A DNA stretch of 38,573 bases from a virus (taxonomy: Duplodnaviria; Heunggongvirae; Uroviricota; Caudoviricetes). A program made the position numbers and the translations under genes. The notes under the pieces were generated by a model, which saw only the letters and a list, made by a program, of their open reading frames with translations, had not been told where the DNA came from and did no database searches. Each line of letters starts with the position of its first letter. The first letter of the stretch is position 1. Where the stretch lies: IMG/VR virus record IMGVR_UViG_2706794695_000013; one strand, 5' to 3'. Of the stretch, positions 2,956 to 38,573 are shown piece by piece.

Positions 2956-2982
2956 TGTCATAACACTGTGTTACCTGGCTAA

Positions 2983-3582
2983 TCAGAATTTATAACCGAC
3001 ACCCACGATGAAACCGTCAGTGCGCCAGTCGCCACTGCCGGAGCCTTCATAAGCAATATCAATGGCCACGGATTCGGTCGGGTTAAACTGCACGCCAGCT
3101 CCCCACGCCAGAGACGTGTTGCTGTGGCGACCGTCATCACTTCCGGTCAGCACATCGTGCGTTTTCCCCTTGTTGTCAGTTACGCGAAGATAATCCCCGG
3201 AGAAAGTCGACACACGGCTGTAAGCCACACCCGCCATCGCATACGCGCTGAACCATTCATTCACGCGCACAGACGGCCCCGCCATTACGCTGAACCAGCG
3301 GTTACGAACGGAATCTTCATGCCAGCGGGTATCGCTGTAACGGGTCAGCTGGCGATTCTTGTCTCCTGCATAGCTGAATGACGTCACCAGCCCCAGTGTG
3401 TCCGTAAACTCATAACGGTATTTCACGTTAATCCCGTTCAGATCATCACTGCCGGGGACGTTCGTCGAGGCATGAAGATACCCCGCGCTCAGCGTGGACT
3501 GATGTTCAGACGCCCATGCAGGCGCACCGGATACGGCCAGACAAATGGCTGCGGACAAAATTGCTGCACAAACTTTACGCAT
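2983..3582 (-). CDS. lom: Outer membrane protein Lom (Ail/Lom family), lysogenic-conversion gene
   Basis: 199 aa; MRKVCAAILSAAICLAVSGAPAWASEHQSTLSAGYLHA... closely matches lambda Lom, including the signal peptide. Confidence 0.9.
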   Translation of the reverse strand: MRKVCAAILSAAICLAVSGAPAWASEHQSTLSAGYLHASTNVPGSDDLNGINVKYRYEFTDTLGLVTSFSYAGDKNRQLTRYSDTRWHEDSVRNRWFSVMAGPSVRVNEWFSAYAMAGVAYSRVSTFSGDYLRVTDNKGKTHDVLTGSDDGRHSNTSLAWGAGVQFNPTESVAIDIAYEGSGSGDWRTDGFIVGVGYKF

Positions 3583-31477: not shown

Positions 31478-31710
31478 GCTGCACCTCCGAGATGCTTCAT
31501 GTTTTTTCCGGAGCGAAAGGCTATAAGCGGCATACTGACGCGGTAATTACGGCCCAGCGGTTCACAAATCACCTTCTGGCATTCACGGTCAACCAGGCTA
31601 ACACGTAGAACATGCCCTGCAGGCGTGGTGTACCACTGCCCAACTGTAGGAATTGATATTTTTTTACGCTGAAGCAAACGGCAAATATTGAGGATCAACG
31701 GATTAAGCAT
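31474..31710 (-). CDS. Hypothetical protein, 78 aa
   Basis: GGAGG SD 8 nt upstream of the ATG; overlaps both neighbours by a few nt (coupled translation). Confidence 0.45.
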   Translation of the reverse strand: MLNPLILNICRLLQRKKISIPTVGQWYTTPAGHVLRVSLVDRECQKVICEPLGRNYRVSMPLIAFRSGKNMKHLGGAA

Positions 31711-32539
31711 GACGATGCCCTCCGCTGATATTCAGGAGACGGTGAATATGAAAATTAGCCTTATCCGCCAGACGAATACGTTCAGCTTGCAAGTTAAGAA
31801 GGGTTTCTACCAGAACCTGATGTGCCTGCGGATCCGAAAGAGTTACCTTGCGCAGAGCACGTAGTGCAGTTGTTACATAACTGAGTTTATGTAAGTCTTC
31901 ATCATTCAGACGAGTGAGGGCTGGGACAGTAGCCATGATGGCAGCCTCCTTGATCGGTGAAATACTTCCACCACCGGAAACGCCAATTTCGCTGGTGGTG
32001 AACTGAACGGGGTTGGCGTAACCGGTGATCAAGGAAACCGGCGCATCTTTCGATGCCCCCGCCCAGCCCACCATAACTTTGATGTGAGCAAATGCGGACG
32101 ATAAAAAAGACGCTGGCGCGTCATATATCGCCTTGATCAATTCCAGGACGCCAATCCCGGCACCCGCTTTATAAGGTGCCTGAACAGTGTAACGTCCCGG
32201 AATGGCAGAATCAATGTGCTGGTGGTCCTTCACACTCAACAAAATCACGCCTGAATTTCCACAAAGGACTAAAGCACTCATGCGGGTAGTCTTTGCGAAG
32301 ATAGATAACGCGCTGTGTTTCTGGCTCCCAACGAATAACATGAACATAAAGTCCTCTTCCGTCACGAAACCAGCGGTTAAGTTCCTGCACAACTCGCCCC
32401 CCACAGTCAGGTAAAGTTCTCTGTGGTTACTTACAGCCAGGTGATTTGGTAATCTGCATTCATGCCGTAACAACAGGTGTTCAGCGACGCTGACCACCAG
32501 CTGTTGCGACAAACGGTTATTTGCCGTTAAACTGTTCAT
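31703..32539 (-). CDS. Hypothetical protein, 278 aa
   Basis: GGAG SD upstream of the ATG; ATGA-type overlap with the upstream gene; no Walker motif or recognisable family. Confidence 0.5.
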   Translation of the reverse strand: MNSLTANNRLSQQLVVSVAEHLLLRHECRLPNHLAVSNHRELYLTVGGELCRNLTAGFVTEEDFMFMLFVGSQKHSALSIFAKTTRMSALVLCGNSGVILLSVKDHQHIDSAIPGRYTVQAPYKAGAGIGVLELIKAIYDAPASFLSSAFAHIKVMVGWAGASKDAPVSLITGYANPVQFTTSEIGVSGGGSISPIKEAAIMATVPALTRLNDEDLHKLSYVTTALRALRKVTLSDPQAHQVLVETLLNLQAERIRLADKANFHIHRLLNISGGHRHA

Positions 32540-33421: not shown

Positions 33422-34096
33422 ATGAAAACAGTCCATGACATCCGGCGGTCTAACGCCAGAAAACTGAGAGATGGTGTTGGCGGGAATTCTTCCTTTGCCA
33501 CCATGATTGATCGCGAGCCAACCCAGACCAGCAGGTTTATGGGAGATGGTGCAACTAAAAATATCGGTGACAGCATGGCACGGCACATCGAAAAATGTTT
33601 CGACCTGCCTGTCGGATGGCTTGATCAAGAACACCAGACAACGAACATCACAAAAAAACCTGACGTTTCAATCACTAACAAACAAATAACGTTAGTCCCT
33701 GTCATATCATGGGTACAGGCCGGAGCATGGAAAGAAGTTGGCTATTCTGAGGTTGATTTGAGCACAGCAGAAACTTATCCCTGCCCTGTACCCTGTGGCG
33801 AAATGACTTATATCTTGCGGGTGATTGGTGATTCAATGATTGATGAGTACCGCCCGGGAGACATGATTTTTGTTGATCCTGAAGTCCCTGCCTGCCACGG
33901 TGACGACGTTATTGCATTGATGCACGATACAGGCGAAACCACCTTCAAGCGGTTGATAGAAGATGGAACACAGCGTTATCTCAAAGCATTAAACCCAAAC
34001 TGGCCTGAGCCTTACATTAAGATTAACGGTAATTGCTCTATAATTGGTACAGTGATTTTCTCAGGAAAACCAAGAAGATACATAATAAAGGCCTAA
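33422..34096 (+). CDS. CI-type repressor with C-terminal S24 (LexA-like) autopeptidase domain
   Basis: 224 aa; catalytic Ser in VIGDSM and Lys in TFKRL; N-terminal DNA-binding region; divergent from cro. Confidence 0.85.
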   Translation: MKTVHDIRRSNARKLRDGVGGNSSFATMIDREPTQTSRFMGDGATKNIGDSMARHIEKCFDLPVGWLDQEHQTTNITKKPDVSITNKQITLVPVISWVQAGAWKEVGYSEVDLSTAETYPCPVPCGEMTYILRVIGDSMIDEYRPGDMIFVDPEVPACHGDDVIALMHDTGETTFKRLIEDGTQRYLKALNPNWPEPYIKINGNCSIIGTVIFSGKPRRYIIKA

Positions 34097-34107
34097 TCAA
34101 TATTTAT

Positions 34108-34131
34108 AACCTGCTTCGGCAGGTTTTTTTA
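34108..34131 (+). terminator. Rho-independent terminator after the repressor gene
   Basis: acctgc ttcg gcaggt followed by TTTTTTT. Confidence 0.7.
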
Positions 34132-34134
34132 TAC

Positions 34135-34163
34135 TTGACAATGTACCTTTGGGATACATAATG
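34135..34163 (+). promoter_or_regulatory. PL-like promoter with overlapping OL-like operator
   Basis: TTGACA, 16-nt spacer, CATAAT; the spacer carries atgtacctttgggatacat, the same motif as the OR sites. Confidence 0.5.
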
Positions 34164-34782
34164 TATCTAAAAGAAACACAGCACAGGCAAGATTAAACAA
34201 AATTTGGTTGTAACACGGCGTATGGCACATGCGTCGTTAGCGGTCTGGGGACGTTAAAGGGGACAATCCACTCCTTGCTCGGGCAAACAAACCAGGTAGC
34301 CGGAATGTGCAAGTCAATGATGATGCTGATAAGACGCCTAACCAGCGTGGCGATTCGGTTTGACGCCTGGGAAGAGACCAGGGTGCAACGATGAGGACAT
34401 TTATGGAACCGCGACAAAGTGTGGTGCCGTAACTGGCTAAGTGCTCTCAGCGTTGTGGTGAATGCGCAGGCTGATGCGCGAAAGACATTGCAGCTAATGC
34501 GGAAAAGAGCTGTTCGGCGGGGCAATTAAACGCCCGTGAGAGTCTGAAATAACCGCAAGCCGGAGATCAGCACCGGTCACCACAACAGCCACTGCTTTGG
34601 CGGTACCAGTTTGTACACTTGCTTCCGGCTGGTACCGCTCTTTTTACAAAACAGAGAAGAGCATCACCGGACGACGGGCTCATAACCAAATCCATCCGGG
34701 CGGCTGCCACCGCAGGTGTTCTTCTCTGTTTTGTGGAGAAACCAACCGACCTTGCAGGGTCGATATGATTAGGAGCAGCAAA

Positions 34783-35145
34783 ATGGCTAGCGAACGCAGT
34801 ACTGATGTGCAGGCATTTATTGGGGAGCTGGACGGCGGCGTATTTGAAACCAAAATCGGCGCAGTTCTCAGTGAAGTCGCTTCCGGTGTGATGAACACGA
34901 AAACCAAAGGTAAGGTCTCACTCAACCTGGAAATCGAACCATTTGATGAGAACCGTGTGAAAATCAAACACAAACTCTCATATGTTCGCCCGACTAACCG
35001 CGGGAAAATTTCCGAAGAAGACACCACCGAAACGCCGATGTATGTCAATCGCGGTGGTCGCCTGACTATTCTGCAGGAAGACCAGGGACAATTACTGACT
35101 CTTGCCGGTGAACCTGACGGAAAACTCCGCGCAGCAGGTCATTAA
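34783..35145 (+). CDS. Hypothetical protein, 120 aa (YfdP-like by recollection)
   Basis: ATG at 34783 with AGGAG 7 nt upstream (MASERSTDVQAFIGELDGG...); track ORF starts at an upstream TTG. Confidence 0.55.
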   Translation: MASERSTDVQAFIGELDGGVFETKIGAVLSEVASGVMNTKTKGKVSLNLEIEPFDENRVKIKHKLSYVRPTNRGKISEEDTTETPMYVNRGGRLTILQEDQGQLLTLAGEPDGKLRAAGH

Positions 35146-37584: not shown

Positions 37585-38004
37585 TTACTCATCATCAATA
37601 GATGATACGCAATATTTATTTTTAAATTTAAGGTTCTTTGGCGTAACTTCATCAGATATATCAAAACCGTCCAGAATTCTATTGAATGTAGCTTCTGGCA
37701 TATCATCATGAACGGAAATCTCACCCGATCGCTGCTTTCTAACCATGTTATCCACTCGCCAAATTATAGCTTCAGCGTAAACAACATAACTTGGATGCTT
37801 GATAAAGCGATGATCACCAGAATTCAAGACGCAAGACGGATCGTGGGGGACACCATCCTTGATACTAGAAATATTAACAACTAAAACACAATAACAATCG
37901 TTAACGGGGTAATAAACAGGATCATTACAAATCACATGAAGATGATTGCATGGCCCAGTTGGGGCAAGCACAGTTCCTTTCCTGTATGGCTGATAATCCG
38001 TCAT
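37585..38004 (-). CDS. Hypothetical protein, 139 aa, translationally coupled to the Panacea-like gene (candidate toxin)
   Basis: ATGA overlap with the upstream stop at 38001-38004; Cys/His-containing MTDYQPYRKGTVLAPTGPCNHLHVICNDP...; no recognisable family. Confidence 0.55.
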   Translation of the reverse strand: MTDYQPYRKGTVLAPTGPCNHLHVICNDPVYYPVNDCYCVLVVNISSIKDGVPHDPSCVLNSGDHRFIKHPSYVVYAEAIIWRVDNMVRKQRSGEISVHDDMPEATFNRILDGFDISDEVTPKNLKFKNKYCVSSIDDE

Positions 38005-38573
38005 GATAATTGCAAAGAAAATTCCTTAAGTTTCTGAGATTCTTCCATTTTGCCAATTATACGATTAGCCTCATCCTCGCTTTTACCCTCACTGATCAGC
38101 ATTTCTTTCAGGTCTATAGGCTTACGAGAATTGCCAGGATTGTGCCACTCTGGACAAACGCTTTCTAAATGCGTCATGTTTGCGAGATCAAATCGGTTCA
38201 TATGCCCATACAGAGAATAGATTTCATCTAAAATCCGGATATCTGCACGGCTCAACTCATCAAAGACCTCGTCTGCATCCATTTCCCTCGGATCTGAACG
38301 CAACAACACATCATGCCCGTTCGTCTCTATCAGGTTGTACCAGTAGTCACCAATACCTTCAGCCTTACCACGAATCAAGTTCAGCGTATTCGACATGACT
38401 GGACCAAATTTCATAGAGTAAAGGCTATCTTCGCCGATCATCCTGCCATGCTTCAAAATCGACTTGCGGTTAGACAGATAGAGCAGCTTCATCAATTTCA
38501 GATATGCCATGCGCCCACCTCGCTTAAGAAGTAGGTATGCAGCCATTTGAGCTACTTTTTCTTCGCAAAACAT
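38001..38573 (-). CDS. Panacea-domain (DUF4065, SocA/GepA-like) protein, candidate antitoxin; N-terminus may extend beyond the window
   Basis: VAQMAAYLLLKRGGRMAYLKLMKLLYLSNRK...SMKFGPVMSNTLNLI fits the Panacea pattern (T-x-LKL-x-KLLY ... F-x-A-x2-GPV); ORF begins at the last base of the window. Confidence 0.6.
   Translation of the reverse strand: MFCEEKVAQMAAYLLLKRGGRMAYLKLMKLLYLSNRKSILKHGRMIGEDSLYSMKFGPVMSNTLNLIRGKAEGIGDYWYNLIETNGHDVLLRSDPREMDADEVFDELSRADIRILDEIYSLYGHMNRFDLANMTHLESVCPEWHNPGNSRKPIDLKEMLISEGKSEDEANRIIGKMEESQKLKEFSLQLS

Follow-up and report, generated by a model that had tools for sequence, protein, structure and literature searches.

Conserved RNA modules with likenesses to parts of tRNA in the N-less early-left leader of an Escherichia coli lambdoid prophage

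What does a lambdoid prophage keep in some 600 nucleotides (nt) of early-left leader when neither an N gene nor any other credible protein gene is found there? We studied this question in the 38,573-nt stretch of DNA held in IMG/VR virus record IMGVR_UViG_2706794695_000013 (hereafter the window), an E. coli lambdoid prophage whose relatives are mEp460, cdtI, SfV and Stx2c phages. The leader lies between a PL-like promoter and the gene yfdP. A preliminary description, made from the letters of the sequence, had pointed to a boxA-like word and an inverted repeat in this leader, and had proposed a nut-like or put-like antitermination element, a regulatory leader or a prophage small RNA (sRNA).

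Three modules of the leader, which we call A, B and M3, are real RNA structures of the plus strand. As to what they do, we infer from their structure and surroundings, with a probability of roughly 45%, that the leader is an early, repressor-controlled cassette of trans-acting RNAs that mimic transfer RNA (tRNA), combined with an attenuator and a hairpin that would control processing and translation. The leader and its borders are built as follows (bp, base pairs).

33422-34096 (+): cI-like repressor gene, named ymfK by PGAP
34108-34132 (+): intrinsic terminator of the cI-like gene; 7-bp stem, 4-nt loop and T-run, -10.3 kcal/mol
34135-34162 (+): PL-like sigma-70 promoter; TTGACA (34135-34140), 16-nt spacer, CATAAT (34157-34162)
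34203-34388 (+): module A, a pseudoknotted RNA of about 185 nt, recognised by covariation and recurrence in phages
34390-34451 (+): M3′, a degenerate M3-like hairpin linking A to B; GATGAGGACAT pairs with AAGTGCTCTCAGC, as judged by eye
34452-34586 (+): module B, a tRNA-shaped RNA; 92.9 bits with model R1, the sole copy in the window
34600-34645 (+): intrinsic terminator T; stem GCGGTACCAG / CTGGTACCGC, long loop, U5 run at 34641-34645
34641-34739 (+): module M3 (model R3); helix of about 25 bp (34641-34665 with 34715-34739) and a three-way junction
34747-34762 (+): small hairpin CGACC-UUGCAG-GGUCG, between M3 and the yfdP Shine-Dalgarno sequence
34783 (+): ATG of yfdP (PGAP), with the Shine-Dalgarno sequence AGGAG at 34771-34775

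Three conserved RNA structures

Folding and covariance analysis against homologues, which the preliminary description had named as a check on its element, revealed that the structures of A, B and M3 are conserved with compensatory changes.

Module B is closed by a helix of 34452-34460 with 34578-34586, made of seven conserved pairs (UGUGGUG/CACCACA) and two optional extra ones. An AAU junction leads into a 5′ hairpin (34464-34479, GCGCA-GGCUGA-UGCGC), followed by a variable domain (34480-34558 in the window; about 10 to 150 nt across copies, in discrete recurring versions) and a 3′ hairpin (34559-34577, GCCGG-AGAUCAGCA-CCGGY) that abuts the closing strand. The hairpin loops are mutually complementary (GCUGA with UCAGC), and tRNA has the same 7 + 5 stacked pairs and the same succession of arms.

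In 40 sequences, 94.8% of the alignment cells were paired and 10 pairs had changed on both sides. None of 500 shuffles reached these values, and slid controls gave 22-55% paired. Every one-sided change in the 3′ strand of the closing helix yields a G-U pair, which fits an RNA on the plus strand. Beta-proteobacterial copies, found with a search pattern that left the outer helix free, carry GUUGGUG/CACCAAC and GAUGGUG/CACCAUC. The 25-nt 5′ core of B occurs in more than 120 viral contigs, and an exact 24-nt core was found in Gamma-, Beta- and Alphaproteobacteria as well as in one Geobacteraceae and one Phycisphaerales genome. The R1 model detected two or three copies, depending on the isolate, in the P1 ban operon and none in HK022 or the T4 tRNA cluster. 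For the variable domain, we found no meaningful antisense target inside the window.

Module A consists of a hairpin (34215-34237), a helix of 34240-34248 with 34292-34300 around a variable insert, and two hairpins further 3′ (34334-34348 and 34366-34382). Two pseudoknots join 34225-34229 with 34306-34310 and the loop 34340-34343 with 34357-34360. Under this model of four helices and two pseudoknots, 96.5% of the cells of a ten-sequence alignment were paired and 8 pairs showed double changes, with a covariation score reached by 0 of 500 shuffles; one of the loop-to-downstream pairings changed on both sides, from C-G to A-U. Conserved blocks of A lie directly after trnI and before ban in P1, directly before tRNA-Arg in phiV10-like phages, and also in the Klebsiella phage SopranoGao and in more than 120 viral contigs.

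The inverted repeat of the preliminary description belongs to M3. Its two 14-bp arms exist as reported (34647-34660 and 34720-34733) and fold better than shuffles (z = -6.5; 0/200), though they form only part of the helix of about 25 bp, which also takes in the U-run of T. The GC-rich loop said to lie between them does not hold up as a simple loop: it is a conserved three-way junction. Arm 1 of the junction (34667-34699) carries GGG-CUCAUAA-CCA at 34676-34688, a near-copy of the initiator-tRNA anticodon stem-loop (CGACGGGCTCATAACCCAATC in M3 versus CGTCGGGCTCATAACCCGAAG in E. coli), and arm 2 is a variable hairpin (34700-34713). Throughout the family, arm 1 forms a covarying 5-bp stem around GGG-CUCAUAA-CCC, with variants that retain the loop NUCAUAN. 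The compared tRNA was verified as the sequence of the four-copy E. coli tRNA-Met gene, which is known to encode the initiator.

For M3, 12 sequences from at least six genera (E. coli, Salmonella ST64B, Klebsiella, Citrobacter, Kosakonia, Superficieibacter and Phytobacter) gave 91.6% paired cells and 10 pairs changed on both sides; again, the covariation score was reached by 0 of 500 shuffles. The R3 model scores the window copy at 99 bits on the plus strand versus 43 on the minus strand, which places the RNA on the plus strand. The motif was found in more than 120 viral contigs, comprising 106 distinct contexts, 62 of them with the gene-proximal long-helix form and 27 in which M3 is followed by B. 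Shorter versions have a base of 10-12 bp (GGTAAGAGCAT with AGTGCTCTTTCC) and stand three bases 5′ of B in P1 and in the Enterobacter phage CobraSix. The degenerate M3′ of the window was not detected by the M3 model at E <= 1; its homologue in a phiV10-like phage (L003, 2169-2246), located directly before tRNA-Arg, is a weak match (15 bits, E = 0.05).

Between M3 and the start of yfdP, the small hairpin is also found in relatives, in which the U(U/G)GCAG loop is kept and the stems vary by genus (GGCGG/CCGCC, GCGCC/GGCGC). It may be a site for protein binding or a translational operator. Together, T, M3 and the small hairpin stand before different first genes in different prophages. In this sense, the proposal that the flagged repeat belongs to a regulatory leader is supported, as a conserved module of the 5′ untranslated region (5′UTR).

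The modules, which recur separately in P1, phiV10-like, T1-like and lambdoid phages and often lie within tRNA arrays, are also independent of one another, since BLAST matches to phages break at fixed points that coincide with their borders. P1, phiV10-like phages and others have the segment 34202-34458 by itself. An isolated match to 34439-34587 occurs in P1, and the conserved ends of this segment give two short matches in Klebsiella, Erwinia, Edwardsiella and Cronobacter phages. In SfIV, 34598-34800 is matched by itself, and ST64B and Klebsiella phages match 34634-34746. The leader is thus a mosaic. Within E. coli, a 701-base leader stretch is 100% identical in several chromosomes; at least 80% of it is present in 796 of 5426 complete genomes, and parts of the leader in 3021.

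Promoter, coding content and terminator of the leader

The PL-like promoter of the preliminary description is confirmed: TTGACA-16-CATAAT matches 11 of 12 consensus positions. It comes after the terminator of the cI-like gene. An operator, TGTACC-N5-GATACA, lies at 34142-34158 between the promoter hexamers, and two more copies of the motif are located in the cI-cro intergenic region. This arrangement marks it as a repressor-controlled early-left promoter in the lambda layout. Transcription would start near 34169, judging from the promoter, and with the yfdP ATG at 34783 the leader would measure about 614 nt. The long leader of the preliminary description is thus real.

PGAP annotates nothing from the repressor gene to yfdP. 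The open reading frames (ORFs) listed on the plus strand of the leader encode 39, 36 and 49 amino acids (aa), besides an in-frame TTG extension of yfdP from 34597. These small ORFs are not conserved: frames shift and stops move among homologues and the nucleotide blocks alone persist, so the modules are not protein-coding. The earlier statements that the leader has no credible plus-strand ORF and no N gene were thus upheld. The ORF list of the leader holds nothing N-like, and the leader has no conserved ORF; a conserved small N-like ORF in it was one of the findings that had been named as overturning the proposal. In phage Ayreon, a promoter and a terminator are annotated at the equivalent place, and its authors also annotated small coding sequences in the homologous leader.

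Searches against known RNAs gave little. With Rfam, run at the gathering cut-off and at E <= 10 on the window, the leader, A alone and B alone, there was no relevant match in the leader and none to module A. ARAGORN found no tRNA or tmRNA in the whole window, and BLAST found no sequence similarity to HK022.

Terminator T stands between B and M3. Its stem (34600-34609 with 34629-34638) has a folding energy of -21.2 kcal/mol when folded with flanking bases. In relatives, the stem is changed by compensation to read CGCCCTTTTT or CGCCCATTTT, and the T-run is kept. With its GC-rich stem and U-run, and with the compensation and the retained T-run, it is an intrinsic terminator and not a boxA.

The boxA-like word that the preliminary description placed near 34631 did not survive this comparison: CGCTCTTTTTA (34636-34646) is the 3′ arm of the terminator stem together with its U-run. 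Two other candidates were also rejected. One of them, AGTGCTCTCAGC (34440-34451), has as its counterpart in related elements the 3′ strand of a conserved helix. The other, AGTGCTCTTTCC, precedes B in about half of its contexts and was dismissed once its partner strand GGTAAGAGCAT and the M3 apex had been found; it is a helix strand of the short M3, which explains the boxA-like word upstream of many B copies. A lambda-type nut site, with a single-stranded CGCTCTTTA-like boxA, a boxB hairpin and N downstream, was not found in the leader. The nut-like reading of the flagged element is not supported, as there is no N gene and both boxA-like words in the leader are strands of helices.

Elsewhere in the window, the minus strand at 31991-32179 matches the C4 antisense RNA (82 bits) and isrK (64 bits), adjoining an ORF of 278 aa (31703-32539, minus strand). 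It is arranged as in the P1 immI-like or SfV 'immunity region' and lies on the PR side of the prophage. At the right end (37585-38573), two minus-strand ORFs, one of 139 aa and one of 190 aa or more, overlap and resemble an accessory gene pair.

Comparison with known RNAs

The nearest known relative of B is STnc100 (RF02076). STnc100 and PasD are described as Hfq-associated sRNAs of prophages (bioRxiv 10.64898/2026.05.13.724894) whose functions are not established (PMC12370729; bioRxiv 10.64898/2026.05.13.724894). The STnc100 consensus opens with gcaUGGUGAAU and a hairpin, continues with a variable region and CCGGGAGGCACCCGG-CACCAugc, and closes with a spacer and a terminator. B shares with it the UGGUG/CACCA closing helix, the AAU junction and the 3′ hairpin abutting the closing strand, and both are carried by enterobacterial prophages. 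Moreover, B and T together reproduce the whole architecture: a UGGUGAAU...CACCA closing helix, a variable middle with a hairpin on either side, and a terminator downstream.

The two differ in the sequences of their hairpins (GCGCAGGCUGAUGCGC and GCCGGAGAUCAGCACCGGC in B versus CCCCCUGUGCGGAGGGG and CCGGGAGGCACCCGG in STnc100) and in taxonomic range, which is far wider for the B core. The window B had no match to STnc100 at E <= 10. The gathering score is 47 bits; B-like variants in P1, SfV and ST64B stay below it, with 33.4, 39.5 and 35.1 bits, and the same segments match our R1 model at 29-35 bits. Neither the window B nor these relatives reach the threshold for membership. As the architecture is shared and the scores stay below threshold, B with T (34452-34645) is, on sequence and structural likeness, best filed as a divergent relative of the STnc100 family and not as a member. 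The suggestion of a prophage sRNA thus holds for a unit with an STnc100 layout, which also occurs as stand-alone B genes, and this unit lies mostly outside the element for which it was made. A partial match of rydB to the 3′ hairpin of B (34559-34576; 13.7 bits, E = 1.3) was treated as chance.

The put RNA of HK022 has a similar setting: an untranslated structured RNA directly after PL of an N-less lambdoid phage, with terminators to follow. Module A takes the same position, about 35 nt after the inferred start, with T downstream and no N ORF. By eye, A and put share a few words in the same order, namely ACGGCG, CATGCGTCG and CAGG.AG.CGG.AATG. The structures are unlike: put is a 74-nt V-shaped RNA of two hairpins with a triplex (PMC9378689), whereas A has about 185 nt, two pseudoknots and a variable insert. 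We built a put model (R2) from eight put RNAs, namely HK022 putL and putR and six collected ones; putL gets 98 bits with it and putR 65. With filters off and E <= 10, the model found no match in 34135-34782 or in any copy of A. Membership of the 5′ half of A in the put family, for which the shared words had made it a candidate, is therefore unsupported, and the put-like reading of the leader does not extend to family membership. In addition, the leader modules, unlike put in this comparison, are also found outside early leaders.

M3 recalls the RNase III hairpin of the lambda N leader, in which the first PL gene likewise has a long helix directly ahead of its ribosome-binding site. Hairpins of that type have a helix of 20 bp or more and are cleaved by RNase III; the helix of M3, of about 25 bp, is conserved, and its cleavage is a prediction. 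In M3, however, a conserved three-way junction that bears an initiator-tRNA-like arm forms the apex, and N and nutL are absent here.

As presumably stable RNAs in tRNA arrays that are not tRNAs and that show partial tRNA mimicry, the modules also resemble the species 1 and 2 RNAs of T4 and the Y-RNA-like YrlA. Homology of B with the T4 RNAs was rejected, since R1 had no match in the T4 tRNA cluster; moreover, B lacks the canonical GGTTCGAATCC T-arm of T4 rnaC. YrlA had no match in the window.

Several individual phages are worth describing here. In ST64B (L312, 1127-1943), the same N-less design extends over about 815 nt from cI to sb37, a yfdP-like gene. A terminator separates cI from PL, and after PL come about 230 nt that match neither A nor put. 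A further terminator (1487-1528) follows, then a B-like RNA, T, M3, the small hairpin and sb37. CobraSix (L131/L316) has a put-like RNA just after PL that is 82% identical to HK022 putL, and downstream of Q it carries an isrJ match, tRNA-Arg, M3 (2876-2965) and B (2959-3032), followed by the lysis genes.

P1 (AF234172; L004, 963-1740) has two M3-B units on the plus strand, one with M3 at 1218-1315 and B at 1308-1409, the other with M3 at 1495-1575 and a B-like RNA at 1569-1692. Both lie where the genes plp and upl, with predicted promoters, are annotated on the minus strand, and the genes and promoters overlap them. A newer P1 annotation omits both genes. We consider that plp and upl may be misannotations.

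Finally, in Candidatus Magnetaquicoccus inordinatus (L306, around 2363-2386) the invariant 5′ core of B is flanked by repeated GTTCTCTTGGCCGCCTACGCGGCGGTGAAC units. Given these CRISPR-like repeats, it appears to be a spacer aimed at a conserved phage RNA gene.

Possible modes of action and their meaning

The contexts of B in other phages give some indication of how it might work. Among 120 viral loci, 22 have tRNA genes within 1.5 kb of B, all on its strand; B begins 2-13 nt past tRNA 3′ ends, and the next tRNA follows 7-21 nt downstream. Modules were found inside the tRNA arrays of virulent phages as well. Other copies are stand-alone genes (L047, L077, L015, L020 and others), in which a -10 box lies about 7 nt before the closing helix and a terminator follows B after 10-60 nt. 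In the Klebsiella phage RCIP0108, B is antisense to both adjacent genes, and in CobraSix Q and a tRNA precede it and the lysis genes follow. Several lambda-like phages have B at the tip of a long hairpin of the N leader, located between nutL and N. Five such contigs (L025, L039, L067, L081 and L105), whose encoded proteins end in ...GKSIPLI, have the tip on a hairpin CTTTGGGGT...ACCACCAAAG; in lambda itself, the same hairpin base carries a different tip.

The compact stand-alone genes and the antisense copy argue for action in trans, and the cassette RNAs would probably act in this way. A naive analysis of the orientation of ORFs flanking B was too noisy to separate cis from trans action.

In the explanation that we favour, the cassette comprises A, the degenerate M3′, B with its own terminator as an STnc100-like sRNA unit, and M3 with the small hairpin as the yfdP 5′UTR. 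It would be transcribed first from PL upon induction or infection, giving an RNA of about 480 nt whose 3′ end would mostly lie at T. As the modules sit 2-13 nt from tRNA ends in other phages, we propose tRNA-array-type processing: the enzymes that process such arrays would cut the PL transcript into stable A and B RNAs.

Once released, these RNAs might act in trans, with B imitating the acceptor/T/D shape of tRNA around an exchangeable variable domain and M3 imitating the anticodon arm of initiator tRNA. Because of this mimicry, the likely targets would be host or defence factors that read tRNA shape; alternatively, they could be Hfq-dependent mRNAs, as proposed for the STnc100/PasD sRNAs. T would attenuate entry into the operon, and polymerases that read through it would make the yfdP operon mRNA. 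The 25-bp M3 helix at the ribosome-binding site could plausibly serve RNase III processing and translation control, in the manner of the lambda N leader.

Several observations weigh against this proposal. The folding energies of A and B as single sequences are no better than for shuffled sequence, with z = -0.4 and -0.6. The apparent conservation of B is inflated by a search pattern that fixed its 5′ half, and the structures of A and M3 were drawn from the same sequences that served for the pair counts. The likeness of B to tRNA is confined to the 7 + 5 bp of stacked helices and the order of the arms. It has no canonical T-loop, D-loop, anticodon or encoded CCA (6 of 79 contexts have NCCA after the stem), and by tRNA criteria it does not qualify, being invisible to ARAGORN (0 genes) and to the Rfam tRNA model. 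The window M3 has CCA where nearly all relatives have CCC, which weakens the initiator-tRNA-like stem by one pair.

The layout of the leader is itself an argument for a different reading, as a series of PL, modules and terminator resembles what a cis-acting antiterminator system would show. T, a strong intrinsic terminator, separates PL from the only protein genes that the operon has, the homologous N-less leaders of ST64B and SfV contain two terminators each, and something must let polymerase through in an N-less operon of this kind. Read-through by put in HK022 takes place in cis and depends on the zinc-binding domain of the RNA polymerase beta-prime subunit. If the leader worked similarly, one or more nascent modules would bind polymerase, carry it past T and later terminators and replace N; A, which follows about 35 nt after the start and occupies the putL position, would be the likeliest candidate.

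The words that A shares with put, the presence of B and M3 in late leaders downstream of Q and in lambda-like N leaders, and the near-invariance of the B core, which would suit binding to a conserved host machine, all agree with antitermination of this kind. Against it stand the failure of the put model in the leader and in copies of A, and a topology of A unlike the two-hairpin V of put (PMC9378689). Nor would one expect stand-alone promoter-B-terminator genes, a B antisense to its neighbours, modules in tRNA arrays of virulent phages, or B downstream of nutL in phages that encode N; CobraSix even combines a true putL at PL with an M3-B unit at another place. On balance, we regard cis antitermination as a serious contender, though an unlikely one.

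That the modules are decayed or selfish passengers, remnants or derivatives of tRNA arrays spread by recombination and without function beyond spacing, seems to us improbable. Their mosaic distribution, with recombination joints at module borders, and their association with tRNA genes would be expected of passengers, as would the degeneracy of M3′ and the weakened anticodon-like stem of the window M3. Yet the helices are maintained by compensatory substitutions across genera and phyla, the B core is exact in distant taxa, and some copies are flanked by dedicated promoters and terminators.

A lambda-type nut site served by an unrecognised N-like protein, or the translation of mini-ORFs of 36-49 codons, could draw on the boxA-like word, the several hairpins and the small coding sequences annotated in the leader of Ayreon. 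Such a reading is very hard to sustain: the boxA-like words are helix strands, no N-like ORF was found in the leader, PGAP annotates no small ORF, and the frames and stops of the small ORFs are not conserved.

The trans-acting cassette, if it exists, is in part of a known kind, as both STnc100/PasD-type prophage sRNAs and tRNA-like stable RNAs in phage tRNA arrays have been described. What is new is the link between these two kinds, the fold and range of B, and modules A and M3, of which we found no description in a limited literature search; likewise, no paper containing the module core sequences turned up. A and M3 appear to be undescribed RNA families.

As for significance, parts of this leader are present in 3021 of 5426 E. 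coli genomes and in P1, SfV and ST64B, yet they are unannotated there. In P1, the annotation of plp and upl may need revision because of their overlap with RNA units on the opposite strand. The relation to B gives the poorly understood STnc100/PasD RNAs a structural definition, a tRNA-like fold and a place in a much larger family with a core that occurs across phyla. Furthermore, the order of PL, RNAs, one or more terminators and genes without N raises a concrete question about early-left expression in a large group of lambdoid prophages.

With its copy of the initiator-tRNA anticodon arm so close to a ribosome-binding site, M3 hints at a connection with translation initiation or with immunity that targets tRNA. 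A broader and rather speculative version, which we think has only a small chance of being right, is that B and M3 are phylum-spanning mimics of tRNA parts, made first on infection to decoy or hijack the machinery that reads tRNA. They would then form a class with an acceptor/T/D scaffold that has swappable domains and an initiator anticodon arm, and STnc100/PasD would be one enterobacterial branch of it. If so, such RNAs could blunt defence toxins that cleave initiator tRNA or anticodons, or manipulate the initiation of translation.

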